This document shows positions 3,050 through 32,847 of a stretch of 64,000 bases of DNA, piece by piece. The notes below the pieces were generated by a model. That model made no database searches, was not told the DNA's origin, and saw only the letters and a list, made by a program, of their open reading frames with translations. Source of the DNA: Escherichia phage phi G17. The stretch lies in the sequence record NC_070870.1; one strand, given 5' to 3'. The translations under genes were made by a program, and so were the position numbers. Positions within the stretch are counted from its first letter, which is position 1, and each line of letters starts with the position of its first letter.

Positions 3050-3057
3050 GAATAACT

Positions 3058-14921: not shown

Positions 14922-17900
14922 TTGAACAGGAAACATGCTATGTCAACATTTGACCGTCTGGCAGGTTTCGCAGACAGCATCACTAATGCTAAGCAAGTCG
15001 ATGTCTCTACTGCAACCTCTCAGAAGCAAGCTGCTCAAGGGCAAAGCCCTTTCCAATTAACCCCAGAGAATGCTTACAATCTCCAGACTGGACGAGTAGG
15101 TAATCTTGGAACTGGTGCATTCGAACCAGGTTCACTTCAGGCTGATTTCACTCAAGCCTCTCCATTAGAAATTATTAATAAGTACGGTAATGAGCAAGGT
15201 CTACAGATTCTTAATAGCCGAGCTAATGCTGCTGATGTTGTACGTCAGGACTTATCTAAACAGCGTACTAACGCAGAAGCATTTGGCGATACTCTTTCTG
15301 GTGTTGGTCTTGGTGTTGCTAATACCCTTGGGGGCATTGCTGCTCTTGGCACAGGTCTGGTCAATGATAATGCCGGGGCATCCATTGCTTCCGGGATGGA
15401 TTGGCTGAATGAAGGTGTACGCAATCTCCAGTCTGATGCACTGAACGCTAATCGTAATGTTGTTCAGAATCAGAACCAGATTACTGCACAAGAGAACCAG
15501 AAACTTTACGAACAAGATATTAAGAATGGGGAGAATGACTTAGTTGCCTCCTTGTCTCGCATTGGTCGTGACGCTTTTGATTCTGTTGCTAATACACTTG
15601 ATAATGGTATGGCTGCTTCCGATGGACTGAGTGAAGGCATTGGTTCCCTCTTTACCGGTGGCCCACTTATCCGTGGTGTATCTGCACTTGGTAAAGTAAT
15701 GGTAGGAGGTGATAAAGCTGTTAAGGGTATTACCTTAGCTGCTGAGTTAGGTTCACGTCCTGCACAGGTTGCACTGTCTGCCGGTCGTGTTGCTGCACCT
15801 GCTGTAGCAATCGGTGGTATGGAAGCTGGTGGTGCATACCAACAGACTGCTTCTGAAATCATGAAGATGTCCCATCAAGAATTGGCAAGTAAGTCTCCTG
15901 TTTACCAACAACATATTGCTGATGGTTTATCTCCTGATGAAGCACGTCGTCAGACTGCATCTGAAACAGGTATCACTGCTGCTGGCTTAACTGCTCCAGT
16001 TGCTGCTGCCACCGGTCCACTGGTATCTCGCTTTGAACTTAACCCACTTAAGGTAGGTTCACTGGCAGGTGCTGGTTCTAATATGCTGCGTGAAACAGTT
16101 GAAGAAGGTATTCAATCCGGCTTCGGACAGTTCGCACAGAACACTGCAATCAAGGAAAATGTTGATGCATCCCGTGATACCCTCAAAGGGGTCGGTGAAC
16201 AAGCAGGTCTGGGTGCACTCTATGGCTTCGGTAGTGCTGGAGTTGCTCAAGCTCCAGGTGCAACTGTTAAAGCTGCTGGTGCTGCCGTTGCTCCTGCTGT
16301 ACGTACTACCCTGGCTGGTGCTTCTCTGGTTGGTAATGCATTAGCAAAAGCTGCCTCCCCTATTACTAACATCTTGGTTCAACGTGGCGAAGAAGTTGCT
16401 AAGCGTAATGAACAAGCGTCCCCTGTAGCAGATGCTACGGTTAGTGCTGCTGCACAGGAAGCTACTGCTCAGTCAGAACAAGCACAAGCAACTGTACAGG
16501 AAGCAGTAGATGCAATGGACATTACTCCTGAAGAGAAAGCTGCTGCTACTCAATATGCTTCTGACTTAACACAGGCAATGAACTTTGACCCAGTAGAAAT
16601 AGAACAAGCTAATCCAGCAATCCGTGAAGCTGTTTCTGGTTCCACTAACCGTGTAGAAGCTATTCAGAAGATGGCTGACTTGGTTAATACTGCTGAAGAC
16701 CCTAACGTTCAAATGGAAGCTGCAATCCAGATGTATGACAATATTATGTCCATGGATAGCTTCATTAACCGTGACCCGGGTGCTCTGGCTAATCTGGAAC
16801 AAGGTTCTCCTGCTGCTGCAATCGTAGACCAGTTCTCTGGCTTGATGGCTAACGTACAGAATACACCGAAGGTACTTCGTGCATTCCGTGCTATCCATTC
16901 CATGATTCAGGAACAGGCTGAAGCAGGTAAACTGAAAGCTACTGAAGAAGCTAACCAAGCCCAAGCAAACAACATTGCTATGGCTGCTGATGTATCTCCA
17001 GAAGTGCTGGATGCTGATTCAGTGAACATGGTTCTGAAACACGCTAGCGAAGGTAAGATTACTCTGGGGAATCGTCAACGTGCTGCCCTGCAATCGGCTG
17101 CTGCTGTCTTACAGGGTGCACGCGAGTTCGACGCTAAAGCAGAAGAACTAGGCTTACGACCTCAAGACATTGTTAGTAAACAGATTAAGACCGACGAGTC
17201 TCGCTCTAATGAAGGCCAGTACTCTGCGTTGCAACATGCGAAACGCATTCGTTCTGCGTACAACTCTGGTAACTTCGATTTGGCCTCCGCTTATCTGAAC
17301 GACTTTATGCAGTTCGCCCAGCACATGCAGAATAAGGTCGGAGCGTTGAATGAGCATCTGGTTTCGGGGAATGCGGATAAGAATAAGTCTGTTCACTATC
17401 AGGCTCTCTCGCCTTCCCGTGAATGGGTACGTAGTCGTACTGGCCTCGGTGTCAATCCTTACGATACCAAGTCTGTTAAGTTTGCCCAGCAAGTAGGACT
17501 GGAAGCCAAGACCGTAGCTGATATTGCTAACGCACTTGCTACGGCTTACCCGGAGCTTAATGTTTCTCATGTGAATGTTACCTCGTTGGATTCACGTCTG
17601 GACAAGCCAGCTGCCCAGGTAGTTAAAGAGTTCCGTCAAGGTGGTCTTGATGCCACTCAGTCTCAACAGACTAATGAACCAGTGAATCAGGTTGATGAAA
17701 CTCCTGCACCAGTGCAAGAGACTGCCCCCACTGTACAGCCTAAAGCTGAGCCGGTGGTAGAAAATAAACCTGCTCCTACTAAGGATACTAGTTCAAAAAC
17801 AGAAGAAGTCTCTACTACTAAGTCTGAAACAGTGGATGCTACCCTCACTAATGAGGATACCACCCAGGAAGTAGCTGAAACTAAAACGGAAATGGAATCA

Positions 17901-20900
17901 GTGTTCCCTGTCTATAACAATGAAAAAACACCGAACCAGTTCCTGAAAGCATTTACTCTGCCGGAAGAACCTAAGTCCCGTACCATTGGTTCTGAATCTC
18001 CTTTGACTGATGTTAAGCAAGCACTGTCTTCTGCTGCTCGCTTTGAAGCATTCACTCAAAAAGAAAATAACGCTCTCACAGGTGATGTGATGAAACGTTA
18101 TCAGGACTTGATGGACTTTGGTGAAACACTGAAGACTACTTTGTCTGACCGTCTGGCTAAGTTCCTTGCTAACAAGAATGTTGGTAAACGTTTTGCAGAA
18201 GGTACTGAAGCTAACCGTTGGGTAGGTGGAAAACTGCTGAATATCGTTGAGCAAGATGGTGATACCTTTAAGTTCAATAACCAGTTGTTAGAGACTGCTG
18301 TACTTGCTGGTCTGCAATGGCGACTGACTGCTACGCAGAATGCTGCCGTTAAAGATATGAAAGACGTAGCTGCTATTACTGGTGTAGAAGCATCTCTGTT
18401 ACCAGAAGGTATTCTGGCTGAGTTTGAGAATGCTCAGACTCTGGTTGAAGCTACTAACTCACTGGCTCAAAAGATAGAATCCTATTGGGGTTTGAATCGT
18501 AATGCTAATGCACCACTGGGTTATACCAAAGGTATCCCAATGGCAATGGCTACAGAGATTCTGTCTTCCCTTATTGAGATGGGTGAAGTTAAAGAGTCTA
18601 TGCTGGATGTGTCTGAAATTGACCCAGCCTCTAATAAGACTGTTGGTCTGTATACCATTGAAAAGCTGGATGACAACGATGCTATTAACAAATTCCCTAC
18701 TGCTATTGAGGAAGCTGTCCTCTTAGAACCAGAAGAGAAAATGTACTTTGGTGATGACATTCCTTCCGTGGCTCAAACTCAGTTACGTAACCCTGCTGTT
18801 AAGAATACCCCTGAACAGAAAGCTGCACTGAAAGCTGAACAGGCTACTGAGTTCCGTGTACACATGCCGATGGTTAACTTCTATGAAGCAATGGGCCGTG
18901 AAAACATTCTGGAACTGATGGGTGCTGGTACTCTTAACCCTGAGCTACTGAACGTGAATACTGCTAAGTCACTGGAAGGTAAAAACCTATCCGTGTCTAT
19001 GGCATATGATTCTCTGTTCGGTGTTATCAGTCAGGTACGGGAACAAGAAGCAGGACTGGATACTCCTATCCATTATGGTTACAACATGACCCGTGTCGGT
19101 CGTATGCAGATGCTTGGCAAGAATAACCCACAATCCAGTAAACTGGTTCGTGAAGCAATTCTGCCAACCTTCTCTACTATCGACTTGAGTAATGAAAACA
19201 GCCAAACGTTCTCTGACTTCCAGTTAGGTCTGGCTCAGGCATTAGGTATCAAGGTACATAACATGTCCCGTGAAGCTATGTCTGAAAAGTTGACCAAGGC
19301 TCTGGAAGGTAATCTGAAACCTGCTGTTGATATGATGGTTGAGTTTGATAAGTCTGGTCACTTACCTACTGATGCAGTAGATATTCTGAAGACTTCTCTG
19401 GGTGGTGATAAATCCTTCGTAGCTCTCATGGCTCTGATGGAATATGCCCGTTACCTGAACAGTGACGACCGTGCCAACTTTAATACCCCACTGTACGTTG
19501 AAGCTGATGGTGTAACCAACGGCCCAATCAACGCAATGGTATTAATGACTGGTGGTAAGTTCACTCCAGACTGGATTAAGAACACTGCTAAAGGTGGTCT
19601 TTTCTTTGATAAAGCTGGTAAGACTATGAACGAACATCGTTCACAGGATGACAGTGTTGACTTGTATGAAGCATCTACCAATGGTCTGCAACAAGCACTG
19701 AATGAGTTACGTACTACTTACCGTAACAACGTTCCTGTTATGAACCAGATGAATCATCTCCAGAAGATAATGGACCTGTTCATTAAAGACTTTAACCTGA
19801 ATGAAGACGGTACTCTGGACCTGAAACGTGGTATCGCTAAGAACCCACTCACCATTACCATCTATGGTTCTGGTGCACGTGGTATTGCTGGCAAGATGGT
19901 TAGTGCAATTACTGATACCATCTATGAACGCTTCAGCGACGTTCTGCAAGCACGTGCTGCTGACCCTAGCATTTCCCCAGCTATGGCAATGTTTGGTAAG
20001 GAGGCTGCGTCTGAGGCCGATGCTCAGGCTATGCTGGATACTTTCCTTACTTCTATGGAAGCACTGACAGGTAATGTTCCAGTTATGCGTAAGGGTGAAT
20101 TGTCTATTCAGCAAGCAGAAGGTGCACTGACTGGTAAGTTAGACCCTCAGAAGTTTACTGTATCTGGCAATGCTCTGAAGAACTTACAAGAGAACATGCT
20201 CCACCTGTTCGTTGAACCAATGCGTACCGGTATCCAGAATACTGTTGGTGAAGGTCTGATGCACTCTACTGAGAACTTGCAGAAGGCTACCCAGATTCAA
20301 TCTCTGGTATTGCAGGATATGTTCCAACAAGCAGTACAGGCTAAGCTGGCAGAAAAAGAAAATGACCCAACCTGGAAGAAGGGTGATTTCTTAACTCAGA
20401 AAGAACTGAATGAAATCCAGGAATCATTATCTCCACTGGCCCCAATGATTGAGACTGGTTCACAGACTTTCTACATTGCTGGTAGTGAGAATACTGATGT
20501 TGCTAACCAAGTACTGGCTACCAACTTAGATGACCGTATGCGTGTGCCAATGAGCATCTATGCTCCTTCACAAGCAGGTGTTGCAGGTATTCCATTTATG
20601 ACCATCGGTACTGGTGATGGCATGATGATGCAGACTCTTTCTACTATGAAAGGTGCTCCGAAGAATACCCTGAAAATCTTTGATGGTATGAACATTGGTA
20701 TCAATGACATCACTGATGCAAGTCGTAAAGCAAATGAGGCTGTATACACTTCTTGGCAGGGGAACCCTATCAAGAATGTTTACGACTCCTACGCTAAGTT
20801 CATGAAGAATGTAGACTTCAGCAAACTGTCTGATGAAACTAAACAGGCTATCGCTAAGTCTGCTCTGGAATATGACCAGCGTGAAGGTGCTACAGATGAC

Positions 20901-23900
20901 CTGTTACGTGTAGGTGCTGAGCAGATTGAACGTAACCTGCGTAACATTGCTCTGGGTGTAGATATTCGCCACAAAGTAATGAACCAGGTACAGACCACTG
21001 TTGACCAGATGGCTGCTGTAGGTGCTCCTTATGTGAACAACGGTAAAATCTCTCTGGAAGGTCTGACGGTAGACCAGCAAGTAGCTAAGCTGAACGAACT
21101 GTTTGATGCTGAATTAAACAAGCGTCGTGATGCAGTACGTGCTGCTAAAGCAGAACCAGTGAAAGAAGTACCGGCAATGGAACAAGTTGGTCGTGTGCTT
21201 AAGTCAGGTGTACGTCTGCTGTCCAATACTGCCATTACTAAACTGGCTAAAGAGATGTCCCCAGAACAGCAAGCAGTATTGAAAGAAGTACAGAACTCCC
21301 TTGCTGCTAAAGACTACAAGGTTGTTTATGGTACTCCTGCTCAACTGGATGCTTATGCTATTGAGAAGAACATTACTCGCCCAGCACCGGAAGATATTGA
21401 AGCTGCTGAAGCAGGTAATGCATACGGCTGGACTAACTTTGATGATAAGACTATCTACTTAGTTACCCCTTCCTTAGAGACTCTGGTTCATGAATTGGTA
21501 CATGCTTCTACTTTTGAATCTGTACTGGCTCACTACGAGGGTACTCCTAATGAAGCAGTCCAGAATATTGAAGACTTGATGAACCAGTTCCGTGCTCTGG
21601 ATGTTAAGGATGAATCCCCGGCAGTACGTGAAGCATATGCTGATGCACTCAATACCATTAACGGTCACTTGTCTAATGGTTTCATTGAGCCAGCAATGTC
21701 TAAAGCTGCTGCACTGAATGAGTACATGGCATGGGGCTTAACCAACCGTGAACTGATTGGTAAGCAGAAGAAGACCACTGCACTGAAAGCTATGGTTCAG
21801 TCTGTGTATGAAGCAATTAAGCGTCTGGTATTTGGTCGTAAGAAAGCACCTGTTAATGCAGATGATATGTTCTCTGGCTTACTGTTTAACTCATCTGTAG
21901 TTATGCGTGGACAGGCTCCTACTGCTGCTGTATCCAAGGACACTACCTTGTTCCATAGCAAAGCATATGGTGACAATACTCGTCTGGAAGAGTTAGGGCA
22001 GACCTTTGATAAGCTGATTACTAACTACATTGGTTCTGAACCAGTACAGCAAGTAATCCGTAAAGGTAAGTTTTCTGATGCAGTAGTGAATGCAACTAAA
22101 GTAACCCGTGATGTTCAGGCTCATGGCTTTACTATGAATATGCAGGAACAGCGACTGTTCACTAATATTGTTGCTGCTTTGGCTACTGAAGCTGCTATTA
22201 GTCCGGCTGCTCTTTCTCGTGCACAGGAATATTATGCACATGTTACTAAGAATCTGACTGTTGAAGCATTCATGACAGACCCGGATAGTACTAACCCTGC
22301 TGACCGTTATTATGCACAGCAGAAGTTCGATACCATCATGGGTGCTAATAATATTGAGTATGATGCACAGGGTCGTTCTTCCTTACTGCCTACCTTTGTG
22401 GCTCTGGCAATGGTAAGTGAAGATGTACGTAATGTACTGGCTGACATTCCTGTTATGAAAGCAGATAAGCAATCCGGTAATACCGTTGATGCAATGCTGA
22501 CTAACATTGGTACTGCTGCAATGGCTAGCCTGAATGCTCGTGTAGCAGGTGACACTAAAGCTACTAACGTACAGGAAGGTATGGATGCACTGGCTCAGAC
22601 AATCATGCAGACTAGTCTTAATGCACAGTCATTCTATGATTCCATTGCTACCCCTAGTGGTAATGCTATCGACCGTGCTAACCAGTATCTGGTGGACTCT
22701 ATTGATGTACTGTCCACCCGTGCTTTAGATGGTGCACGTGAGGTTGCAGCTAATACCAAGAATCCGTTGGTTAAGGGTGCTGCTCATGCTGCTCAACTGG
22801 TAGCTGCCATTGCTACAGAGAAGAATGGTGCAATCGTAGCTGAAGGTGTTATGGCTGCAATGAACCAGGGTAAAGCATGGCAACCTTTCCATGACCTGGT
22901 TAATGACTTAACCGGTCGTACTAAGAGCAATGCTTCTGTGTATGATTTAATTAAAGCAGTTCGTGCACAGGTACAGGCTGACCGTCAACAGTTCCGTGAA
23001 CATCTGCCTACCACTATCGCATCTAAGTTCAGCCGTAAGCTGACCAATGATGAATGGAAAGCAATGCACACTGGTATGGGTAAAACTGATTTGGCTGTTC
23101 TGCGTGACACTATGTCTCTGGCTGAAATCCGTGACTTGCTGACTGACCAGAAGATTGTTGACCGTGAAGTGAATAAGCTGGAAGCAGATTTGCAGAAGCA
23201 AGCTGGTCGTAACTGGCCCCTGATTAATCGTAAATCTAAGCAACTGGCTCAGTACATGATTAACGGTACAGTCGGTAATAACCTGCTGCGTAATGCTACT
23301 GCAATCTCCCGTATGCTGGGTGAACGTCAGGCTGCTCGCTCTACCGTAGATGTAGCTCAACTGGATAAACTGATTACTCTGTATGCACTGGAAGCAATGA
23401 ACAAGAAAGACCGTGAGATGTTATCTTCACTGGCTCAATCAGAAGTTGATGGAATGGACTTTGTTACTTCTTATCTGGTTGGTCAGCGTAAAGATGAAAT
23501 GGCTAAAGCCAAATCTGATATGCGTGCAACCCTGAACCAGTACAAAGGGCATATCCCTAGCGAGAACAAACAGGGTGTTAATCTGATTGTTGCTGAAGAT
23601 AGTCAGTTTGCTGATTTGATTGAGAAGTCTTATGTACGTCTGGGTACTTATCAGGGTAGCTCTGCTAACCGTGGTCCGGCACGTAGCTACTACTTCGCAC
23701 CAGTACAGGCACAGGCTCCATTCTCACAGGGTATCCTACAGAACGTTCGTAATACTGCTGGTGGTGTAGACCTCGGCACAGGTTTTACGATGGGTTCAAT
23801 GGTGGCTGGTCGTATTACTGACAAGCCTTCTGTAGACCGTATTACTAAAGCACTGGCTCGTGGTGAGCGTGGTAATGAACCACTGCTGCCTGTATATGAT

Positions 23901-25292
23901 GACAAAGGTAATGTGGTTGCCTATGAGCAATCAATTGACCCTAACATGCTGAAGCACATTGAAGGCGAGAATCACCTTGCCCGTGCAATCGGTGTATGGC
24001 GTGGTCGTCAGGTTGAAGAAGCTAAGGCACAGCGTTTCAACGATATGCTGATTGAGAACCTGCATAGCATGTACGAGAACGACATTAAAATGTCTGCCTC
24101 TAATAAGTCCCAGTACGTGAACCTTCTTGGTTCTAAACTGGACCCAGTAACTGCTGATGCGCTTAAGCTGATGAACAGTGAAACTCGTCAGAAAGCAGAG
24201 AGCCTGTTTGGTGAGGGCGAACTATGGGTACGTCGTGACATGCTGAATGATGCACTAGGTTATCGTGCAGCTTCAGTTGGTGATGCATGGTCTGGTAACT
24301 CTCGTTGGTCCCCGGAAACTCTGGATACCTTCAAGAAAGCTATGCTGGGTGTATTCGGCAACCGTGCTTATAAGTACACAATGGGTGGAGAGAACCTGGT
24401 TCAGAACTTAGTTAAAGAAGCCAAGACTCTGATTGTAGTTAAGTCAGTAGTCGTACCTGCTGTTAACTTCTTGGCCAACCTTTACCAGATGGTTGCTCGT
24501 GGTGTACCGGTTAAGAACATTGCTAAGAGCATTCCACAGAAAACTGCTGAGATTAACCAGTACCTGAAATCTCGTCTGCGTCAGGTGGATGCAGAAGCAG
24601 AATTACGTGCAGCTACTAACCCGAACCAGATTCGTAAACTTAAGGCTGAGATTCAGTCCATCTCTGATAGCCATAAGCGTATGAGTATCTGGCCCCTGTT
24701 GGAAGCTGGTGAGTTCTCTTCAATTGCAGATGCTGGTATTGGTCGTGATGACATCCTGATTACTGAGGGTAAGATTCACGAATACATGGATAAGCTGGCT
24801 GATAAGTTGCCCAAGTCTGTACGTACTGCTGGTCGTTATGCACTTATCACTAAGGATACTGCTCTGTTCCAGGGCATCCAGAAGACGGTTGAGTACTCTG
24901 ACTTTATTGCTAAAGCAATCATCTACGATGAACTGACCCAGCGTAAAGGTAAGACTCGTGAAGAGGCACTTGGTCGTGTAACGGAAGAGTTCGTTAACTA
25001 TGACCGTCTGCCTGGTCGCTTCCGTGGATATATGGAAAGCGTTGGTTTAATGTGGTTCTACAACTTTAAGATTCGTTCTGCAAAAGTTGCAGTATCCATG
25101 ATTCGTAATAACCCAGTACATGCAGCAATGGCTATGTTGGCTCCAACTCCTACCATGTTTGGTAATGTTGGCTTACCTATTCAGGACAACATCTTCAGCA
25201 TTGCAGCACAGGGTAACATGGGTTACTCGTGGGGCTTTGGTCAGGGACTTCGTGCTCACAACCTTAACCCTTGGCTGAACTTAACTAACTAA
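14922..25292 (+). CDS. virion-encapsidated RNA polymerase (giant vRNAP, N4 gp50-like)
   Basis: Single uninterrupted 3456-aa ORF; N4 vRNAP is about 3500 aa and is the last gene of the late strand, as here; internal K-x-P-x-T-x-x-YG segment (KNPLTITIYGSG) resembles T7-like motif B. Confidence 0.85.
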   Translation: MNRKHAMSTFDRLAGFADSITNAKQVDVSTATSQKQAAQGQSPFQLTPENAYNLQTGRVGNLGTGAFEPGSLQADFTQASPLEIINKYGNEQGLQILNSRANAADVVRQDLSKQRTNAEAFGDTLSGVGLGVANTLGGIAALGTGLVNDNAGASIASGMDWLNEGVRNLQSDALNANRNVVQNQNQITAQENQKLYEQDIKNGENDLVASLSRIGRDAFDSVANTLDNGMAASDGLSEGIGSLFTGGPLIRGVSALGKVMVGGDKAVKGITLAAELGSRPAQVALSAGRVAAPAVAIGGMEAGGAYQQTASEIMKMSHQELASKSPVYQQHIADGLSPDEARRQTASETGITAAGLTAPVAAATGPLVSRFELNPLKVGSLAGAGSNMLRETVEEGIQSGFGQFAQNTAIKENVDASRDTLKGVGEQAGLGALYGFGSAGVAQAPGATVKAAGAAVAPAVRTTLAGASLVGNALAKAASPITNILVQRGEEVAKRNEQASPVADATVSAAAQEATAQSEQAQATVQEAVDAMDITPEEKAAATQYASDLTQAMNFDPVEIEQANPAIREAVSGSTNRVEAIQKMADLVNTAEDPNVQMEAAIQMYDNIMSMDSFINRDPGALANLEQGSPAAAIVDQFSGLMANVQNTPKVLRAFRAIHSMIQEQAEAGKLKATEEANQAQANNIAMAADVSPEVLDADSVNMVLKHASEGKITLGNRQRAALQSAAAVLQGAREFDAKAEELGLRPQDIVSKQIKTDESRSNEGQYSALQHAKRIRSAYNSGNFDLASAYLNDFMQFAQHMQNKVGALNEHLVSGNADKNKSVHYQALSPSREWVRSRTGLGVNPYDTKSVKFAQQVGLEAKTVADIANALATAYPELNVSHVNVTSLDSRLDKPAAQVVKEFRQGGLDATQSQQTNEPVNQVDETPAPVQETAPTVQPKAEPVVENKPAPTKDTSSKTEEVSTTKSETVDATLTNEDTTQEVAETKTEMESVFPVYNNEKTPNQFLKAFTLPEEPKSRTIGSESPLTDVKQALSSAARFEAFTQKENNALTGDVMKRYQDLMDFGETLKTTLSDRLAKFLANKNVGKRFAEGTEANRWVGGKLLNIVEQDGDTFKFNNQLLETAVLAGLQWRLTATQNAAVKDMKDVAAITGVEASLLPEGILAEFENAQTLVEATNSLAQKIESYWGLNRNANAPLGYTKGIPMAMATEILSSLIEMGEVKESMLDVSEIDPASNKTVGLYTIEKLDDNDAINKFPTAIEEAVLLEPEEKMYFGDDIPSVAQTQLRNPAVKNTPEQKAALKAEQATEFRVHMPMVNFYEAMGRENILELMGAGTLNPELLNVNTAKSLEGKNLSVSMAYDSLFGVISQVREQEAGLDTPIHYGYNMTRVGRMQMLGKNNPQSSKLVREAILPTFSTIDLSNENSQTFSDFQLGLAQALGIKVHNMSREAMSEKLTKALEGNLKPAVDMMVEFDKSGHLPTDAVDILKTSLGGDKSFVALMALMEYARYLNSDDRANFNTPLYVEADGVTNGPINAMVLMTGGKFTPDWIKNTAKGGLFFDKAGKTMNEHRSQDDSVDLYEASTNGLQQALNELRTTYRNNVPVMNQMNHLQKIMDLFIKDFNLNEDGTLDLKRGIAKNPLTITIYGSGARGIAGKMVSAITDTIYERFSDVLQARAADPSISPAMAMFGKEAASEADAQAMLDTFLTSMEALTGNVPVMRKGELSIQQAEGALTGKLDPQKFTVSGNALKNLQENMLHLFVEPMRTGIQNTVGEGLMHSTENLQKATQIQSLVLQDMFQQAVQAKLAEKENDPTWKKGDFLTQKELNEIQESLSPLAPMIETGSQTFYIAGSENTDVANQVLATNLDDRMRVPMSIYAPSQAGVAGIPFMTIGTGDGMMMQTLSTMKGAPKNTLKIFDGMNIGINDITDASRKANEAVYTSWQGNPIKNVYDSYAKFMKNVDFSKLSDETKQAIAKSALEYDQREGATDDLLRVGAEQIERNLRNIALGVDIRHKVMNQVQTTVDQMAAVGAPYVNNGKISLEGLTVDQQVAKLNELFDAELNKRRDAVRAAKAEPVKEVPAMEQVGRVLKSGVRLLSNTAITKLAKEMSPEQQAVLKEVQNSLAAKDYKVVYGTPAQLDAYAIEKNITRPAPEDIEAAEAGNAYGWTNFDDKTIYLVTPSLETLVHELVHASTFESVLAHYEGTPNEAVQNIEDLMNQFRALDVKDESPAVREAYADALNTINGHLSNGFIEPAMSKAAALNEYMAWGLTNRELIGKQKKTTALKAMVQSVYEAIKRLVFGRKKAPVNADDMFSGLLFNSSVVMRGQAPTAAVSKDTTLFHSKAYGDNTRLEELGQTFDKLITNYIGSEPVQQVIRKGKFSDAVVNATKVTRDVQAHGFTMNMQEQRLFTNIVAALATEAAISPAALSRAQEYYAHVTKNLTVEAFMTDPDSTNPADRYYAQQKFDTIMGANNIEYDAQGRSSLLPTFVALAMVSEDVRNVLADIPVMKADKQSGNTVDAMLTNIGTAAMASLNARVAGDTKATNVQEGMDALAQTIMQTSLNAQSFYDSIATPSGNAIDRANQYLVDSIDVLSTRALDGAREVAANTKNPLVKGAAHAAQLVAAIATEKNGAIVAEGVMAAMNQGKAWQPFHDLVNDLTGRTKSNASVYDLIKAVRAQVQADRQQFREHLPTTIASKFSRKLTNDEWKAMHTGMGKTDLAVLRDTMSLAEIRDLLTDQKIVDREVNKLEADLQKQAGRNWPLINRKSKQLAQYMINGTVGNNLLRNATAISRMLGERQAARSTVDVAQLDKLITLYALEAMNKKDREMLSSLAQSEVDGMDFVTSYLVGQRKDEMAKAKSDMRATLNQYKGHIPSENKQGVNLIVAEDSQFADLIEKSYVRLGTYQGSSANRGPARSYYFAPVQAQAPFSQGILQNVRNTAGGVDLGTGFTMGSMVAGRITDKPSVDRITKALARGERGNEPLLPVYDDKGNVVAYEQSIDPNMLKHIEGENHLARAIGVWRGRQVEEAKAQRFNDMLIENLHSMYENDIKMSASNKSQYVNLLGSKLDPVTADALKLMNSETRQKAESLFGEGELWVRRDMLNDALGYRAASVGDAWSGNSRWSPETLDTFKKAMLGVFGNRAYKYTMGGENLVQNLVKEAKTLIVVKSVVVPAVNFLANLYQMVARGVPVKNIAKSIPQKTAEINQYLKSRLRQVDAEAELRAATNPNQIRKLKAEIQSISDSHKRMSIWPLLEAGEFSSIADAGIGRDDILITEGKIHEYMDKLADKLPKSVRTAGRYALITKDTALFQGIQKTVEYSDFIAKAIIYDELTQRKGKTREEALGRVTEEFVNYDRLPGRFRGYMESVGLMWFYNFKIRSAKVAVSMIRNNPVHAAMAMLAPTPTMFGNVGLPIQDNIFSIAAQGNMGYSWGFGQGLRAHNLNPWLNLTN

Positions 25293-25328: not shown

Positions 25329-25342
25329 AAAAGTCTGGGTGT

Positions 25343-25546: not shown

Positions 25547-25670
25547 AATAGTTTCCTACAGATATGAGAAAGCCCTCACTAGGAGGGCTTGTTTTGTTTT
25601 GGCTTCTAGAGCCTTACCACATGTCGGGTAGTTCAGTACCTTTCGGTAAAAACTACCTTACACCTGTTTG

Positions 25671-26063
25671 TTAAATTGTGCAACCACCACCGTCACATGT
25701 GTTGTTTTCTGCAAAGGAAGCCAGTGCCTTAGCAGTCTCCTCTTTCTCATGCAGTGCCTGACGTAGCAGGTAACCTTCTAATTCCCAAATCTTATTGAAT
25801 GCATTTTCATATGCATAACGACGACCTACCCACTCATCGTAGATAGCTGGGTCAACACAGGCAGATACGCCTTCAACTTTGAAGCCATTTTCCAGGATGA
25901 TAGTGCAATAGGTTACTAGGCTCAGATTAGCCAAATCATCTTCCGGGATTGCAGAAGGGTTAGCGAATCCAGACTTCACTGCATCAGCACCATTGAAATA
26001 GTAGACGCTTTTAATTTTAGCTTCGATTGATTCTTTACTTACTGTTGCCATTATTAGCCTCAT
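25671..26063 (-). CDS. hypothetical protein
   Basis: 130 aa ORF. Confidence 0.4.
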   Translation of the reverse strand: MRLIMATVSKESIEAKIKSVYYFNGADAVKSGFANPSAIPEDDLANLSLVTYCTIILENGFKVEGVSACVDPAIYDEWVGRRYAYENAFNKIWELEGYLLRQALHEKEETAKALASFAENNTCDGGGCTI

Positions 26064-26220
26064 AGAGTGGTTTGAGTTTGTACTTAAACATGACTGCGTT
26101 GTTATAGGCTACGCTACCTGCAAACACCAAGGACTTACGTCCTCGGTTATCCGTTACCTCATAGGCATACGGGGTTAAGATTAGGTCAATCATCTTGGAT
26201 GTCCAATTAACAATATTCAA
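26035..26220 (-). CDS. hypothetical small protein (doubtful)
   Basis: 61 aa ORF starting immediately after a minus-strand terminator; may be spurious. Confidence 0.2.
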   Translation of the reverse strand: MNIVNWTSKMIDLILTPYAYEVTDNRGRKSLVFAGSVAYNNAVMFKYKLKPLYEANNGNSK

Positions 26221-26247
26221 ATAAAAAAGTCCCTCCGAAGAGGGACT
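26221..26247 (-). terminator. rho-independent terminator (minus orientation)
   Basis: On minus strand AGTCCCTC-TTCG-GAGGGACT followed by TTTTTTAT. Confidence 0.65.
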
Positions 26248-26407
26248 TAGTAGCTTTTAATAGATAGCTGTATTTGAGCATTATAGTCTGCTCATACTCA
26301 CACTCTTCTGTCGAAGAATATGTTTACAATATCTAGAGTGCCGGACTGTCTTACCGGCATTGTCTTTAGAGTGCTAAGCAATCAGGACTATGTTCTCTAT
26401 TAATGGG

Positions 26408-26481
26408 TGCCCACTACTGGATTTGAACCAGTGACTTTCCGATTATTAGTCGGTTGCTTTCCCCGTCTAAGCTAAGTGGAC
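26408..26481 (-). tRNA. tRNA-like gene, canonical cloverleaf, apparent anticodon AAU
   Basis: Minus-strand read GTCCACT-TA-GCTT-AGACGGGGA-AAGC-A-ACCGA-CTAATAA-TCGGA-AAGTC-ACTGG-TTCAAAT-CCAGT-AGTGGGC-A: 7-bp acceptor (one G-U), 4-bp D stem with GG in D loop, 7-nt anticodon loop with U33, 5-bp T stem with TTCAAAT loop; anticodon stem has one A-A mismatch. Confidence 0.45.
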
Positions 26482-26613
26482 ATAATAGGGTGAGTCATGC
26501 CAGGCTCTAACTGGCTCCTTCTTCGCAATCCTTACATACCCCTACATAATTATTGCGTTAAGCTTTTTTGTTTAAGTTTAAGTGAAGGTGTTCTTGCTGA
26601 CTCATAATACTTT

Positions 26614-26687
26614 CAATTCAGAGTAGCACTCACACAGGATTGTGCCTTTGAATACCGGGAAGTATAAACGAGTGCTACTTTGAATTG
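26614..26687. repeat. long inverted repeat (18-nt arms, 1 mismatch, 38-nt spacer)
   Basis: CAATTCAGAGTAGCACTC at 26614-26631 versus GAGTGCTACTTTGAATTG at 26670-26687. Confidence 0.7.
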
Positions 26688-26857
26688 GTTCCCCGTTTCT
26701 AATACACGGACGGGGACACTCCATGGTCGTTTGATAATCAGGACGACTCACTCCTGACTGAGGTTACGCTGTTAGGCGACCATCAGATACGCTTCTTCGT
26801 TTGCATTTATGTTATTGGTTCGTTTCTAAAAAACCGCATAATCGCTACGAAAACTAT

Positions 26858-26936
26858 CGGGGAGTGCACTAGCTCTGGGCCACGCTCGTGGACATCGACC
26901 TTCCTTCCACAGCTAATCAACTAATACACTCCCCTG
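26858..26936. repeat. inverted repeat (8-9 bp arms GGGGAGTG / CACTCCCC, about 60-nt spacer)
   Basis: CGGGGAGTGCACT at 26858-26870 and ACACTCCCCTG at 26926-26936; shares motif with the 27042-27115 repeat. Confidence 0.6.
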
Positions 26937-27041
26937 TTAGGAAGCTGCCAGGGATTCCACCTGGCTCCATCTGTTTTTAAAGTCACTCAGATATCGTCTG
27001 GACTTCCCATTGCCGTGGGATGTTGATAGAAATGAGAGGTT

Positions 27042-27115
27042 CTATCGGGGAGTACACTTACTCGACTGGTTAAACTATATCTATCCAGCTCCCCAGCAAA
27101 TGTACTCCCCGATAG
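27042..27115. repeat. perfect 15-bp inverted repeat with 44-nt spacer
   Basis: CTATCGGGGAGTACA at 27042-27056 and TGTACTCCCCGATAG at 27101-27115. Confidence 0.75.
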
Positions 27116-27289
27116 TCCATAATAGGAGGGAGGGGACGAATCCTCCCTTTATACCCTATGTTGCATGTAAGATCTAACAATTCGATGCTGTAGATAGCGA
27201 TACTATCCGACATTAAACCCAGCCCCTGGGGGCTTGTGTGATTATAATGCTCAACATTGAGCGGTTAGTTGATAAGGGATCTGAAGCCT

Positions 27290-27317
27290 TATCCCAAAGA
27301 TAATAACCTTTGGGATA
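27290..27317. repeat. perfect 10-bp stem / 8-nt loop hairpin
   Basis: TATCCCAAAG-ATAATAAC-CTTTGGGATA. Confidence 0.6.
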
Positions 27318-27530
27318 TAGCCTAAGATTCAGAAATGGCCCCTATATGGAGAGGCCATTGATTAACCCGAATGTTGCTTTACATTTGCTGTGATAACCAG
27401 TTCTTAAAATAGTCTGTCTGACGGATGGGGAGCCACCCCTAGCGTCAGTGCCATACGGCAAAGATTAAGTTAAGAAAGGTTATGATAGGAGTTCCTATCT
27501 CAAAGGATTCTGACAGAACCCTTCACGATA

Positions 27531-27797
27531 TTAACTACTCTTCTTCAGTGCTTCTACTTCACCATCTTTATACCAGGCATATGGTATCAAGACTTTGCAG
27601 CCTTCTGAATCAATGTGGAATGCTTTGTTTCCTTCAACGGGTTCTCCACCCAGAAAAGAACTAACCTTTCCATTGTGCCAGTGAATAGTAAATTTGTTCA
27701 TATTAACCTCGGTTGAACCAATGGACTGGGGAGAGTATTCCAATCCACTGGTTCGGTTGTTGTTATTCTGGCGGCTTGTCACCACCGTGTTTACCAC
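27531..27797 (-). CDS. hypothetical small protein
   Basis: 88 aa ORF; true start may be internal Met (MNKFTIHW...). Confidence 0.3.
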   Translation of the reverse strand: MVNTVVTSRQNNNNRTSGLEYSPQSIGSTEVNMNKFTIHWHNGKVSSFLGGEPVEGNKAFHIDSEGCKVLIPYAWYKDGEVEALKKSS

Positions 27798-27932
27798 TGC
27801 ATTTCCACAGGATAATGACAGTGATGATAAAAGCTATGTATGGAGCCGACACGTCTATAATCCTGACTAGTAGTAACATCAGGACTATAAACACTACCAC
27901 ACCTAGCAGCAGCTTCTGAGCCACCTACCAGA

Positions 27933-28433
27933 TTAACTACGTTTCAGGCCAGCGAACAGTGAAGGTTTCGCAGCAGGTTTCTCTGCTGGTTCTTCAACCT
28001 TAACTTCTTCCTGCACAGCTTCTTCGTGTGCATCTGGTTCAGTTGTTGCTTCTTCTTCTTCAGCAACTTCTTCTTCAGGTTCCGGCGTAGAACTCTCGTT
28101 CTGACCACCAACTGAGGTCGGGGCATCTACTTTCAGTTCCAGAGGTGCTCCCTCCTTTACCGATTCGGTAACAACTTGTTCACCAACCTCAGGTTCTGGG
28201 GTTGAGTCAACAGGACGATGTTTGGCTTCTTGTGGATTCTTGCGAGGACGGCGGGTCTTCTTCTCTACCACGGGTGGAGTGTCATCATCATGACCGACCT
28301 CTTCATTGATGCCAACGGAGGCAGTACCATCTGAATTCACCAGGATACTAATGTCCCCGGCAAGATTAACTTGTTCATTTACGTAAGCTTCAATAGCAGC
28401 TTCTACTTCGGACTGATTCAGGACGATTTGCAT
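27933..28433 (-). CDS. hypothetical highly acidic protein
   Basis: 166 aa; C-terminal half Glu/Pro/Val-rich low complexity with a short basic patch (KKTRRPRK). Confidence 0.45.
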   Translation of the reverse strand: MQIVLNQSEVEAAIEAYVNEQVNLAGDISILVNSDGTASVGINEEVGHDDDTPPVVEKKTRRPRKNPQEAKHRPVDSTPEPEVGEQVVTESVKEGAPLELKVDAPTSVGGQNESSTPEPEEEVAEEEEATTEPDAHEEAVQEEVKVEEPAEKPAAKPSLFAGLKRS

Positions 28434-28434
28434 A

Positions 28435-28989
28435 TTATGCCTTTATTAATTTAATGAGGTTCTGGAAAGCTGGGAGATTTACACCAGCGTGAATTGCACC
28501 GATTGCATCAGCTAAGTGCTCATTCTTATTTAGAAGTTTGCCTTTCTTATCTGTGAGCCAGTTGGCTTCTGGATAGATGGCATGAGCAGCACGAATCATC
28601 GTGTCTTTGGATGCAGTTTTATCTCCGACCAGTGCAAGTTTGTTTTCAATTGGGGATACTTCAAAGATTGGACAACCCAATGCACGGAATGCACCGATTA
28701 ATCCTACGCATACGCCATAGGATTTCATACCGTTAGCAGACTGAGAGCCTACTGGTACTTCTACGAATACTGCTTTAGCAGACCGTAACCATTCCTCACA
28801 ACCAAGAAACAAATCATAAGAGGCTTGTATATCTTTGGAGTTGGTTCGAACTTGCTTGTTGTGGTCAACTTCAGTTTGAACCAGTTTAAGTTCGACTTGC
28901 TCGAAGACGCCGGACTCAATGTCCAGCATCCCACGAGCTAATCCCCAATTGCGGAGACTAATGTCTGCACCGACAATTGGGATTTTCAT
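28435..28989 (-). CDS. putative RuvC-like (RNase H-fold) Holliday junction resolvase
   Basis: 184 aa; N-terminal IVGADISL and C-terminal EHLADAIGAIHAG resemble RuvC-family catalytic segments; adjacent to SSB and RecA-like genes. Confidence 0.4.
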   Translation of the reverse strand: MKIPIVGADISLRNWGLARGMLDIESGVFEQVELKLVQTEVDHNKQVRTNSKDIQASYDLFLGCEEWLRSAKAVFVEVPVGSQSANGMKSYGVCVGLIGAFRALGCPIFEVSPIENKLALVGDKTASKDTMIRAAHAIYPEANWLTDKKGKLLNKNEHLADAIGAIHAGVNLPAFQNLIKLIKA

Positions 28990-29786
28990 TAACGTTTACC
29001 GAACAGAGATTTACCACCTGCCGGAGCAGAACTTGTACTAGCACCTGGTTTAGGAGGCAAGCCACCTTTACCATTACCACCAGTAGAACCCTTGGTCTTA
29101 TCGCGGGTTTTACCTTTGTTCTTTTCCAGCCATGCTGCATAGAATACAGCCAGTTCTGGGGTCAGTTCTTTCTCAGCCTTCTCTGCTTCCTGAGCCTCGA
29201 CGACTGTGACCAGCAGTTCCGGGTGAAACACTTTCTGAATCTCGTTTACTTCACGAGTTTCACCAGAGTCAACGTAACCGTTGTCACCCTTAACCTGCTT
29301 AGCTTCCAGAACCTTTTCCAGAGCGAAGGTAACAGTCTGACCAACCAGATCAACTGGAACCATGACGGACTTGTTGGTTTCTGCTTTTAGGTCAAAGTCA
29401 TAGACTTTAACAATCTTCTCTTCGAAGTCTGCATCCGGTAGTTCATTACCAGTAGCCATCAACATCATGTCGTTAATGACAGTGTAACCAGGCAGGAAGT
29501 ATTCTTTACCGTTCTTCTCATAAGTCGGCTTATTGCCTTTAGCATTACCAGAAGTGAAGTACACCTGAGCACGGAACTCACCGGCACTATTGCCAGCAGA
29601 ACCTTTCAGGTCTTCAATGATTAACTGCATCCAGTCTGCACCAGAGTCTGCTTTACCTACGTAAGCCACTTTGACAGTACCGGTGTAGATATCAGATTCT
29701 TTAGCGCCGAAGCCACCACCACCAAGGGAGTCTTTAGCAGCTTCAACGTTTTGGGTTTTTTCTTTCAAGTTACCGAACAGTGACAT
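28989..29786 (-). CDS. ssb: single-stranded DNA-binding protein (N4 gp45-like)
   Basis: 265 aa, same length as recalled for N4 SSB; Gly-rich flexible C-terminal tail; position next to replication/recombination genes. Confidence 0.5.
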   Translation of the reverse strand: MSLFGNLKEKTQNVEAAKDSLGGGGFGAKESDIYTGTVKVAYVGKADSGADWMQLIIEDLKGSAGNSAGEFRAQVYFTSGNAKGNKPTYEKNGKEYFLPGYTVINDMMLMATGNELPDADFEEKIVKVYDFDLKAETNKSVMVPVDLVGQTVTFALEKVLEAKQVKGDNGYVDSGETREVNEIQKVFHPELLVTVVEAQEAEKAEKELTPELAVFYAAWLEKNKGKTRDKTKGSTGGNGKGGLPPKPGASTSSAPAGGKSLFGKR

Positions 29787-29827: not shown

Positions 29828-30580
29828 TTAAGCGTAGTATTCAGCCAGATGGTCTAAAAGTTTTTGAGCGTCATTATCAATGTACGTCTCGGATTTATCG
29901 AACATACCCATCGGTGAACGTAAGCGTTTACCAACAGACTTCTTGGTTGGGCGAGTCTGGAATACATGCTTATAACCTAAGTCACGCTCTTCTTCAGTAA
30001 TTTCAAGCATCTTGTTGCCATACTTCTCCAGTTCCTTGATGTCTACACGCTCAGCGTAAACCACTGTAGAGAAATAAGCCTCAAGGCCATTGTTCTTCAG
30101 GGAGCCTTTGACCGGGATGAATGTTTTCATCACACCGGCAGCTTCATCGAGTTCATCTTTGGCATGGGCAGTAATGATTACTGGCTTACCAAACTTAACG
30201 ACTTTCTGTTGCAGCAGTACTTTAAAGAACTGTGCAAAGTCTCCCCAGGCTTTCTGGGTATTAGCAGATGGTAATACATACTGGGATTCCAGCATGTCCA
30301 TCATGAAGGTAGCAGAGTCGATAATGATGCCATCAACATCGTCTGCCATTTCACCACCTGGAGATGCAACATCGAATGCTTCCCAAATCTGATATGGGTC
30401 TTCAATGTTGTAGGTGTTGAACTTATTACGGAAAGGCAGTCGCTTACCTGCTTCTGTATTCAGATACAGCCAGCGTTCCTGGTTCCTGATATTACGCAGT
30501 GATGCTGATTTACCACTCGCTGAGAATCCTGCAATCAGGATTAGCTGAGTGTTCATATCGTTGGAGATTTCTTCGGACAT
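29828..30580 (-). CDS. RecA-like P-loop ATPase (Sak4-like recombination protein)
   Basis: 250 aa; Walker A GFSASGKS, Walker B-like GIIIDSAT; core-only RecA-size protein next to SSB. Confidence 0.5.
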   Translation of the reverse strand: MSEEISNDMNTQLILIAGFSASGKSASLRNIRNQERWLYLNTEAGKRLPFRNKFNTYNIEDPYQIWEAFDVASPGGEMADDVDGIIIDSATFMMDMLESQYVLPSANTQKAWGDFAQFFKVLLQQKVVKFGKPVIITAHAKDELDEAAGVMKTFIPVKGSLKNNGLEAYFSTVVYAERVDIKELEKYGNKMLEITEEERDLGYKHVFQTRPTKKSVGKRLRSPMGMFDKSETYIDNDAQKLLDHLAEYYA

Positions 30581-30636: not shown

Positions 30637-32847
30637 TTATTTGCCAGCGAAGCGTTTAGCCACGGTGACCATTACGGTTGCATTCAATTCATCATCTGGT
30701 AATGGATTAGCCAGTTTCTTATTGAACGAGTAGACGGCTTGCTGTACTTGAGCAAAGTCCCAACCACTGTCTACTAATGCCAGTGCGTACTTAATCATTT
30801 GATTATTACGATTACCGGAGGCAATACGACCAGCGAACCAACGCTCCAGATTGTCTAACGACTGTACTTCCTTCATCTGGTTCTGGAACTGTTCGTTCTT
30901 ACTGGTACGAGGAATAAAGTCACGTACATCCAACAGATTCGCATCAAGGTTGTAATGATAGGAACCAGTTTCACAGGACATCCACTTCTTGGCTCGTTGG
31001 TTAGCAGACTCATCCGTTTCGAATGGTAGCCAAGCCATAACGTTATTCATGAACTCTTTGTATTCCACAGTGTCGAGGTGCAACTCATAGTTCATTGGGA
31101 TAATCAGACGGAAGCGGTTCTCTTCGTCGGAATGACGCTTAGTGGTATAGGTCATGAACTTATATTCCTTCATCAGTTCATGGCACGTATGCAGTGGTAC
31201 TCCACCATCACAGTCAATAACAATCATGTTAAATCCTGGAATCACGTTCTCTTCAGAACGATGTCCATTCTTCATGTGATGGTTTACCCAGTGCATACCG
31301 GGAGCTTGGGTTAATACATGTAGCTGGTCAAACGGTACACGTTCACCAACATAGTCATAAGCAAAGCTATCACTATAAGCCACCAGCATCTCATTGGTGT
31401 CAGTCTCTTTCAGAGTCTCACCACGGAAGAACTCAATACCTTCATTGAATGTCTTCTTAATAATGATGTGCTGTTTGTAACCCCATGCTGTAGCAAGAGT
31501 CATCATCTCATTACGAGCTGCATTGCCACTCTTATAGAACGGCAGTGACTCCAGTAAGTCAGCATGAGTCACTTCTTTGCCTACGGAAGCAATGTACTTA
31601 GCCAGCTTAACATAGGCTTTCTCACGATTAAGGATAGTCTGGAAAGCTGCCCCGGATTCTTCTACGAGCAGGATTGCTTGTTTAAGATGAGCCATCTCAA
31701 TGAATGAACTCTGGTCAACAAACGCCAGTGCACCTGCCAGCTTAAGAGCTTTGAAGTAACGGTGGGAGATTTCAGCTTTACGAATTTCTTCGTGGTCTGC
31801 CATAGCTTCTGCTTGTTTCTCACAATCAATTTTGTAAGTAATCAGAGCAATACCCACTGCATCTTCCACAATCATCTTAAAGCCAAACAGGTTTGGGTCA
31901 GCCAGACTATGAAAGTGGTTAGCCCACTTGCCAAGAGACTGAACGTTATCCTGCTTAATCAGGTTACGGTAGATTTCTTCCGGGGTCAGCGTTGCATGTG
32001 CTCGCTTGTCTAAGTGCCCAATGGCAAACAGACAACGACGTGCATACCCCGTATCAAGGAAGTCATAGAACTGGTCTTCAGTCTGACCACCATCCAGCAG
32101 CTTACTCGGAGTACCGAATAGCAGCAGGTTAGCGGGAGTCTTACCATCCAGTTCTTCACCACGTACACTTTCAGCAGTGTTCTTGGTTAACTTCTGTTTT
32201 ACTTTCCCTTGGTCATACAACTCAAGGAACAGGTTAAGTACTTCAACGTTGGCAATGAGGTTGGAACCAATCTCATCAATCTGTAAGTTGATGCCACCAC
32301 AACCAGCCATAAGCAGTTTGTGACGAAGTTGCTTTACAGCAGGTGCTGTACCAGAGTCGAACGTGAACGGGAATGCCCCAGCACGCTTATACTCTGCTTC
32401 AACTTTATCGAACTCTTCTTGCTGGTCAGTACCCTGACGTGCAGAACGTTCGTTAGCAATCTTCCACAGACGGTCATTTGCAATGACGGGCATGGTGTCT
32501 TCCATAAAACGTTTACGGAAGCCAGTCATGAATCCGTCTTCAATGATATTTACCGAGTGACCTTTACCGAAACCAGATGTAGCCAACGCCATAGCGTAGA
32601 TGTTTACTGGCAGGTCACCACGGTCTTTAGTTACGATGGTTGCACCCATGCAGGATGCCATTTTAGCCAAGAAGTAGGCCACTTCGACACGGAAAAATCC
32701 CCGGTCGTTATTCTGGGTTTTATTGCAGAGCACATCTACGATTTCTTCAATCGCCGGATGGTGCACTACTCCGGTAAGGTCAATACTCATGATGGAAAAT
32801 ATCTCTCTCTTTGTTTGCAAATGGACGCGACAGGGCAATATAAACAA
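30637..32847 (-). CDS. DNA primase (AEP/prim-pol type, N4 gp43-like)
   Basis: 736 aa; C-terminal region has IVIDCD (motif I hhhDhD), RHS and RFRLIIP segments typical of archaeo-eukaryotic primase domains; start uncertain (MSIDLTG at residue 20 possible). Confidence 0.55.
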   Translation of the reverse strand: MFILPCRVHLQTKREIFSIMSIDLTGVVHHPAIEEIVDVLCNKTQNNDRGFFRVEVAYFLAKMASCMGATIVTKDRGDLPVNIYAMALATSGFGKGHSVNIIEDGFMTGFRKRFMEDTMPVIANDRLWKIANERSARQGTDQQEEFDKVEAEYKRAGAFPFTFDSGTAPAVKQLRHKLLMAGCGGINLQIDEIGSNLIANVEVLNLFLELYDQGKVKQKLTKNTAESVRGEELDGKTPANLLLFGTPSKLLDGGQTEDQFYDFLDTGYARRCLFAIGHLDKRAHATLTPEEIYRNLIKQDNVQSLGKWANHFHSLADPNLFGFKMIVEDAVGIALITYKIDCEKQAEAMADHEEIRKAEISHRYFKALKLAGALAFVDQSSFIEMAHLKQAILLVEESGAAFQTILNREKAYVKLAKYIASVGKEVTHADLLESLPFYKSGNAARNEMMTLATAWGYKQHIIIKKTFNEGIEFFRGETLKETDTNEMLVAYSDSFAYDYVGERVPFDQLHVLTQAPGMHWVNHHMKNGHRSEENVIPGFNMIVIDCDGGVPLHTCHELMKEYKFMTYTTKRHSDEENRFRLIIPMNYELHLDTVEYKEFMNNVMAWLPFETDESANQRAKKWMSCETGSYHYNLDANLLDVRDFIPRTSKNEQFQNQMKEVQSLDNLERWFAGRIASGNRNNQMIKYALALVDSGWDFAQVQQAVYSFNKKLANPLPDDELNATVMVTVAKRFAGK

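Follow-up and report, generated by a model that had tools for sequence, protein, structure and literature searches.

What is the function of a small, highly acidic protein whose gene stands directly after a Holliday-junction resolvase gene in the replication operon of an N4-like phage? The question is raised by a locus in 64,000 nucleotides of DNA from Escherichia phage phi G17 (NC_070870.1), the whole of which is called the window below. The window is that of a G7C-like, N4-like podophage (Schitoviridae, Gamaleyavirus), and its DNA is ~92-94% identical to phages Mimir124, Moonfish and E20. An earlier reading of the sequence (the original prediction) had described the product as an acidic, low-complexity protein and left three options for it, i.e. 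a DNA-mimic anti-restriction protein, a histone-like or chaperone protein, or a flexible-tailed replisome protein. The last of these, understood as a replisome or recombination accessory, is the best fit, given the adjacency and fusion of this protein family to resolvases and a C-terminal tip like that of the phage single-stranded DNA (ssDNA)-binding protein (SSB). We put at about one in two the probability that the protein, gp47, is a flexible tail or adaptor associated with the resolvase and docking by means of this SSB-like tip. The gene is the following open reading frame (ORF):

27933..28433, minus strand: gp47-family ORF, ATG start, 166 amino acids plus stop; ortholog of gp47 of phages N4 and G7C

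Identity and spread of gp47

The translation of this frame agrees with the description in the original prediction, in which PEPEEEVAEEEEATTEPDAHEEAVQEEVKVEEPAEKP corresponds to residues 117-153. Its sequence is that of phi G17 gp20 (100% identity), a 'hypothetical protein' by annotation, and the G7C record labels the ortholog gp47, 'similar to gp47 from phage N4'. Its isoelectric point (pI) is 4.3, and its 166 residues include 31 Glu, 15 Pro, 20 Val and 16 Ala. Among the ~77 putative genes of the window it ranks first in Glu content (18.7%), in Asp plus Glu (23.5%) and in the most acidic stretch of 40 residues (18 of 40).

The window protein is a member of the N4 gp47 family (phrog_7641; related families phrog_18842 and phrog_27655), for which no function has been reported. 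It matches the phrog_7641 profile over its full length (E 1.2e-54, residues 1-166 versus profile positions 1-151 of 151), its gene lies after those of SSB and the resolvase, and it has both the MQI(T)LNxxE(I/V) head and the tip that mark the family. The number of homologs is 721 (E<=0.001); after clustering at 50% only 14 clusters match the window protein. The homologs, the full-length profile match and the conserved position together show that the gene is real and not a chance ORF. An alternative frame at 27944..28126 on the minus strand (60 amino acids, rich in Lys and Arg) is an out-of-frame image of the acidic run and was rejected as a gene. A wider spread was found by searching onward from a distant family member: the head domain turned up in N4-like phages that infect Escherichia, Klebsiella, Salmonella, Erwinia, Achromobacter, Rhizobium, Pseudomonas, Stenotrophomonas and Xanthomonas, and the hosts of the gp47 carriers that were compared are alpha-, beta- and gammaproteobacteria.

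Anatomy of the protein

The anatomy was drawn from an alignment of close and distant relatives and from an AlphaFold2 model. Four parts can be told apart:

28299..28433, minus strand: folded head, residues 1-45; helix 7-21 and beta-hairpin 28-32/38-42
28209..28265, minus strand: basic patch, residues 57-75, EKKTRRPRKNPQEAKHRPV; net charge +6
27978..28208, minus strand: acidic, disordered linker rich in Pro, Val, Ala and Thr, residues 76-152; net charge -22
27936..27977, minus strand: C-terminal tip, residues 153-166, PAAKPSLFAGLKRS; short linear motif including KPSLFAGLKR

The head is modelled with confidence (predicted local distance difference test, pLDDT, 87-93) and has the conserved sequence MQI(T/V)LNQxE(V/I)...DGT...I(G/N)EE. 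The linker has a pLDDT of 51-57 (residues 81-150) and no secondary structure in the model. The structure prediction that had been proposed as a check thus gave a folded head and a disordered acidic linker, and both the acidic, low-complexity character of the protein (pI, Glu content, low linker pLDDT) and the claim that a half rich in Glu, Pro, Val and Ala follows a short basic patch are borne out. Across 208 family members the linker is 60-133 residues long, with medians of 27% Asp plus Glu, 13% Pro and a net charge of -13. It is conspicuous that the linker is rich in insertions and deletions between relatives, i.e. its sequence and length vary and its acidic composition is kept, whereas the head and the tip are nearly invariant.

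The tip KPSLF(A/G)(G/N)L is present in 130 of 130 proteins of the closest group (group A, Enquatrovirinae-like). In the family as a whole the more general pattern [KR]-x-S-[LIV]-F-[ASGN]-..[KR] sits 2-9 residues from the C-terminal end in 211 of 212 members. Many distant relatives have a second copy of the tip inside the linker (e.g. AGGLFGKK, SSQIFGKK or KTSIFK), which is typical of a short linear docking motif. The S-L-F of the tip fits positions 3-5 of the beta-clamp-binding motif QL[SD]LF, but Lys or Arg replaces the Gln family-wide. The tip, KPSLFAGLKRS, which is basic and hydrophobic, does not fit the acidic-hydrophobic SSB type of end with a terminal Pro-Phe (DDDIPF-like).

The annotated N4 gp47 has a different end (KPNLLCLQV), and we considered whether its C terminus is divergent. 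The difference is explained by the N4 reference record (NC_008720, locus L003 ~3040-3122), which has a 1-nt deletion in an A-run at position ~32,050, GAAGAAAAAG -> GAAG-AAAAG, as judged against PMBT57 (locus L041 612-753) and other genomes of the N4 species. The annotated protein ends ...KKYRKKRLKNQYKPNLLCLQV, whereas the N4 -1 frame and PMBT57 read ...EVQEEEAKEPVQAKPSLFAGLKR. In other words, the frameshift removes the KPSLFAGLKR end from the annotated N4 protein, and the -1 frame still has the codons for it. The deletion is either a sequencing error or a mutation of the laboratory strain.

Database searches assigned no function to any of these parts. Neither the window protein nor any of 56 relatives had a significant match in sequence searches of Pfam, NCBIfam and PDB; for the window protein there was no Pfam match at E<=0.01 and none at E<=1, and PDB was searched by sequence and by profile. 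A weak match to DUF2653 in 9 of the 56 relatives (best E 0.0018, well below a credible score) was taken as noise. A Foldseek search of the gp47 model against PDB found nothing with E<1. MADS-box proteins (SRF/MEF2), which also combine a helix with a hairpin, reached a Foldseek probability of only 0.06-0.10 and were rejected as evidence. The single significant match in BFVD was an uncharacterised homolog from KP8. Clear homology to a known replisome accessory protein, which the original prediction had named as the finding that would overturn it, did not turn up in any of these sources; they returned only uncharacterised homologs.

Association with junction resolvases

The synteny sample consisted of 36 loci including the window (31 IMG/VR loci and several GenBank phages), of which 14 divergent ones were inspected in detail. 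The order Sak4-like gene, SSB, resolvase, gp47 is found in 36 of the 36 loci, with gp47 always directly after the resolvase. The window genes of this operon, gp43-gp44-gp45-gp46-gp47, are the following:

30637..32847, minus strand: primase gp43, in the replication operon
29828..30580, minus strand: gp44, Sak4-like AAA_24 ATPase (ssDNA annealase); phrog_124 E 8e-50, PF13479
28989..29786, minus strand: gp45, N4-type SSB; phrog_743 E 8.6e-89
28435..28989, minus strand: gp46, RuvC-like Holliday-junction resolvase; phrog_159 E 1.6e-41

The neighbours are therefore those that had been claimed, a RuvC-like gene (phrog_159) and SSB (phrog_743). The starts and stops are tightly coupled: the SSB and gp46 genes overlap in TAATG, and gp46 and gp47 meet in TAA-T-ATG, with one base between stop and start. 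To judge by these junctions, gp47 is translationally coupled to gp46, and gp46 to SSB. In the sequence examined at the locus there is no promoter or terminator between gp47 and the rest of the operon.

The resolvase beside gp47 belongs to three unrelated types, i.e. the RuvC-like type of phrog_159 (as N4 gp46), a RuvC-fold protein of 157 amino acids (phrog_1770) and a RusA-like type. Since the partner varies in type, gp47 stays with a function and not with a particular protein. Moreover, RusA and gp47 form a single in-frame ORF in three Rhizobium phages of different genera and in Pseudomonas phage ZC08. PHROG profiles assign residues 4-147 of the fusion to RusA (E 5e-37) and residues 127-237 to the gp47 families (E 2e-18). 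In the AlphaFold2 model of the fusion the RusA domain (pLDDT 92-97) matches E. coli RusA 2h8c (E 3.8e-5, probability 1.00). After it come the helix-hairpin head known from gp47 alone (pLDDT 88-95), an acidic part without order and, at the end, the tip.

Such fusions are not rare. Among the best 120 database matches to the fusion, ~105 are of fusion length (230-341 amino acids), 61 of these being confirmed by a strict head-domain pattern, and 13 are RusA alone without the tail. The matches of fusion length almost all end ...(K/R)xS(L/I)FG(G/N)L(K/T)KP.N., and about 100 metagenomic protein clusters have the in-frame fusion. Pollock, Pylas and the Salmonella FSL SP-058 group have the RusA and gp47 parts as separate genes. 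Genes that are split in some genomes and fused in others classically point to products that work together. We note that the window gp47 is not itself fused: it has its own ATG after the stop of the RuvC-like gene and is the equivalent of the C-terminal module of the fusions only.

Two observations on the relatives may be added. First, the fusion ORFs keep an ATG at the boundary of the two parts, with GAGGA, AGAGGA or GGAG 8-9 nt upstream, so that free gp47 might also be made in the fusion phages by internal initiation. The sites are

L036, 2471-2515: fusion-boundary ATG site
L038/L039, 2471-2515: fusion-boundary ATG site
L040, ~2849-2893: fusion-boundary ATG site

Second, in Pseudomonas phage Zuri (MK863032, locus L037) the product names at 343-2959 appear to be out of register by one gene; 'Holliday junction resolvase' stands at the gp47 homolog and 'ssDNA binding protein' at the RuvC-like gene.

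Similarity between the tips of gp47 and SSB

Peptides similar to the gp47 tip are found in the SSB of the same operon, at both of its ends:

28992-29018, minus strand: SSB C-terminal tip GGKSLFGKR, within gp45
29763-29786, minus strand: SSB N terminus MSLFGNLK, within gp45

The C-terminal ends of SSB are GGKSLFGKR in the window, AAKSLFGKK in N4, KKSLFGKK in KP8 and KPSLFGKK in the Rhizobium phages; distant loci have KKKLFG, PNLFG or KTSLFG. Nearly all SSBs of the compared loci share with gp47 an end of the form K/R-x-(L/I/M)-F-(G/A/N/K), the one exception (L020) ending in S-F. The N-terminal MSLFGNLK is even nearer in spacing to the SLFAGLK of gp47, so that SSB may carry the motif at both ends. 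The SSB N termini of loci L001-L040 have the general form M-x-(L/I/M)-F-(G/S/A)-x-L-(K/T).

Within the window the strict pattern SLF[AG] at a protein terminus is confined to gp47 (C-terminal end) and SSB (both ends), and a looser pattern is found at 4 of 77 C termini, against 0.76 expected. Loosely motif-like ends also occur in the products of 1366-1698 (+), 56624-56944 (-) and 9769-12411 (+), i.e. the C-terminal ends ...RREIFAWFAG and ...KRPVFAFQVLKPKG and the N-terminal end MGLFSGK. A shared DNA repeat was considered as the source of the likeness between gp47 and SSB and was rejected, as the coding stretches have only CTGTTCG in common.

The likeness matters because the C terminus of N4SSB is functionally essential. 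In the activation of late transcription by N4SSB, ssDNA binding is dispensable and the C-terminal residues are essential; the protein activates the sigma70-RNA polymerase (RNAP) and contacts the C terminus of the RNAP beta' subunit (PMC4496689). In phage HK620, Sak4 depends on the six C-terminal residues of the cognate SSB (PMC5928155). The Sak4-like gene is the first of the cluster of Sak4-like, SSB, resolvase and gp47 genes.

A proposed resolvase-associated adaptor

The anatomy of gp47, its pattern of conservation, its place beside or fusion with resolvases and the likeness of its tip to that of SSB are observed. On these grounds we infer that the gp47 tip is a docking motif and that its receptor is common with that of SSB. 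The head, together with the basic patch in this lineage, would hold gp47 with the resolvase and/or DNA, a link that is covalent in the many relatives with a RusA fusion. The acidic tether would serve as a flexible spacer that repels DNA, or it would shield the basic patch. The tip would dock at the site that receives the C-terminal tip of the phage SSB, KSLFGK(K/R), and docking would bring junction cleavage to the sites of SSB-organised replication and recombination, or regulate it there. As candidate receptors one may consider the Sak4-like ATPase gp44, further proteins of the replisome, SSB and the C terminus of the host RNAP beta' subunit.

A bolder version, which we consider unlikely as a whole, is that a single docking code (basic-x-(L/I)-F-small) on both ends of SSB, on gp47 and on RusA-gp47 links replication, junction resolution and late-gene activation to one receptor, e.g. 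the beta' C terminus or the Sak4-like ATPase. In such a scheme the resolvase would reach the hub through gp47 as its adaptor, and the acidic tether would be a DNA-mimicking auto-inhibitor released on docking.

Several points weigh against the adaptor reading. The head domain is retained even in the covalent RusA fusions, so that resolvase binding cannot be its sole role, and the presence of the same head beside three unrelated resolvases argues against a specific interface between head and resolvase. The head probably has a role of its own, e.g. dimerisation or the binding of DNA or of another partner. The basic patch is weak in the wider family (median +3, sometimes 0) and variable in position. 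As to the gp47 tip, its covariation with the C-terminal or N-terminal peptides of SSB was examined by permutation, and no lineage-specific signal was seen (p = 0.98 and 0.14); what is shared is therefore a general motif of ~4-5 residues, possibly convergent or coincidental. The distant SSB tips KKKLFG and PNLFG, moreover, do not have the Ser that is invariant in gp47. Should the frameshift in the N4 record be genuine and not an error of sequencing, the phage can do without the tip under laboratory conditions. Finally, a literature search covering function, essentiality by CRISPRi-ART or transposons, and the core genome of N4-like phages gave no experiment or statement on gp47.

Alternative explanations

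The strongest rival, which we nevertheless consider quite improbable, makes gp47 a regulator of late transcription. Its tip would mimic the C-terminal activation peptide of N4SSB and bind the C terminus of the host RNAP beta' subunit, either as a competitor, i.e. an anti-activator timing the switch from middle to late transcription, or as a co-activator; the acidic tail would repel DNA or fill a nucleic-acid channel. The proposal draws on the activation of sigma70-RNAP by N4SSB through its C-terminal residues and its beta' contact, and not through ssDNA binding (PMC4496689). It would also suit the similar ends of gp47 and SSB in nearly all compared loci, and the position of gp47 as a middle gene that shares the operon of SSB. 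The target region of beta' is described as highly conserved, which fits a tip that is conserved across phages of different hosts. It leaves unexplained, however, why gp47 is strictly adjacent and frequently fused to junction resolvases, and it does not sit well with the absence of covariation between the tips.

The basic patch is the basis of the second rival, which developed from the histone-like or chaperone option of the original prediction and to which we give a low probability, of the order that makes it highly unlikely. gp47 would be an architectural DNA- or junction-binding protein, or a chaperone, of the HMGA/HMGB kind, in which the basic patch binds the minor groove or else four-way junctions, with the acidic tail as an auto-inhibitor or modulator of this binding. 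All 130 close relatives of group A have a charge of +6 within 15 residues at ~58-72, and the block DTPPVVEKKTRRPRKNPxEAKHxPV is kept in the Escherichia/Shigella/Klebsiella group. The patch is AT-hook-like, but in the window it reads KKTRRPRKNP, i.e. RRPRK without the Gly of the RGRP core. A canonical core, KRGRPRNK, is found at the equivalent place in the RusA-gp47 fusion of Rhizobium phage RHEph22, and a loose RGRP/RRPR pattern matches 90 of 212 family members. HMGA and HMGB have such a charge pattern, with an acidic tail behind a basic segment, and a place beside a junction resolvase would suit junction binding. The strong patch is limited to the Enquatrovirinae-like group, however, and being weak and shifting family-wide it cannot be the defining function of the family; the invariant tip would also be left unexplained. 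What stands of the histone-like claim is thus an AT-hook-like patch before an acidic tail in one group, which gives it weak support.

The suggestion of a DNA-mimic inhibitor of host defence such as restriction-modification, in which the acidic tail would imitate the DNA backbone and block a host nuclease, has in its favour the high negative charge and the place of the gene at the edge of a variable region where relatives carry Tad2-like and anti-CRISPR annotations, but it is not supported and appears very remote, since the acidic region is a disordered, indel-rich linker of hypervariable sequence and length, no Pfam, NCBIfam or PDB family matched, the gene keeps its syntenic place in the replication module in phages whose hosts differ widely, many relatives have it fused to RusA, and the gene order suggests expression with the middle operon rather than early.

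The adaptor reading, then, brings together the adjacency, the fusions and the tip. gp47 is conserved across the compared N4-like phages, and its linkage to resolvases, including the in-frame fusions, is a first functional context for it. The likeness of the tips offers a second natural ligand for the site of the N4SSB C terminus, which bears on a question of RNAP activation that dates from the 1990s. If the reading is true, a phage resolvase is equipped with an SSB-like recruitment tail; if the likeness of the tip is coincidental, what is left is a conserved hypothetical protein of an ordinary kind, part of which is acidic and disordered. The family was known, and what is new is a specific and testable functional hypothesis for a conserved orphan gene.

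The region downstream of gp47

Two further features of the window border on the region that follows gp47:

27763..27924, minus strand: small predicted membrane protein, 53 amino acids, directly after gp47; phrog_19025 E 5e-9
14922..25292, plus strand: virion RNA polymerase, ORF of 3456 amino acids

Of the 14 divergent Schitoviridae loci that were inspected, most have a membrane-protein ORF of a similar kind right after gp47. The N4 record leaves it unannotated, and the N4 DNA (locus L003 ~3128-3290) encodes MVATKLLLGVVVFIVL... at this place.

The stretch at 25300-27900, between gp47 and the virion RNA polymerase, is a variable accessory region of these phages. Relatives have genes there that are annotated as HNH endonuclease, Tad2-like anti-Thoeris protein and anti-CRISPR proteins. 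In the window the region contains a protein of the N4 gp49/Sf6 gene 66 family at 25671-26063 (PF13876), a strong bidirectional terminator hairpin at 26227-26248 and a lone tRNA-Ile gene, whose anticodon AAT is unusual, at 26404-26482 on the minus strand; relatives have other sets of tRNA genes there.

Comparison with known systems

The DNA mimics Ocr and ArdA are folded proteins that mimic the geometry of B-DNA. Their high negative charge is the sole likeness to gp47, and there is no match in sequence or structure. HMGA and HMGB are alike in the basic patch of Arg, Pro and Lys followed by an acidic tail, and in being largely disordered, but the window gp47 does not have the RGRP core, its patch is not family-wide and no homology is found.

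SSB tails follow the same general plan. The linker of E. coli SSB with its DDDIPF end, and HK620 SSB with NDYPPF (PMC5928155), show the same succession of folded domain, disordered linker and short end peptide that recruits partners. gp47, on the other hand, lacks an OB fold, and no homology to any SSB could be detected; the character of its tip is basic and hydrophobic, and its acidity resides in the linker and not in the tip. T7 gp2.5 and T4 gp32 have acidic C-terminal tails, matching the acidic character of the gp47 tail. The C-terminal activation region of N4SSB (gp45) shares with gp47 the operon and a similar end peptide (KSLFGKK versus KPSLFAGLKR); otherwise the two are unrelated, the SSB linker being rich in Gly, Pro, Ser and Lys and not acidic, and the tips do not covary.

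The RusA-like resolvases with a C-terminal extension (phrog_33948 and the long forms of phrog_1682, phrog_14238 and phrog_21721) carry the gp47 module itself. Examples are Rhizobium phage RHph_X3_15 QWY83752 and Pseudomonas phage ZC08 gp13, in which the C-terminal half consists of the head fold, the acidic linker and the tip. The difference is that the window gp47 is a separate protein and that its neighbour is a RuvC-like resolvase of the gp46 type, not RusA. The gp47 family of N4 and G7C, finally, has the same full-length homology, the same place after gp46 and the same head, linker and tip; the window protein differs from it in nothing, and the N4 reference copy is the one with the 3' frameshift.

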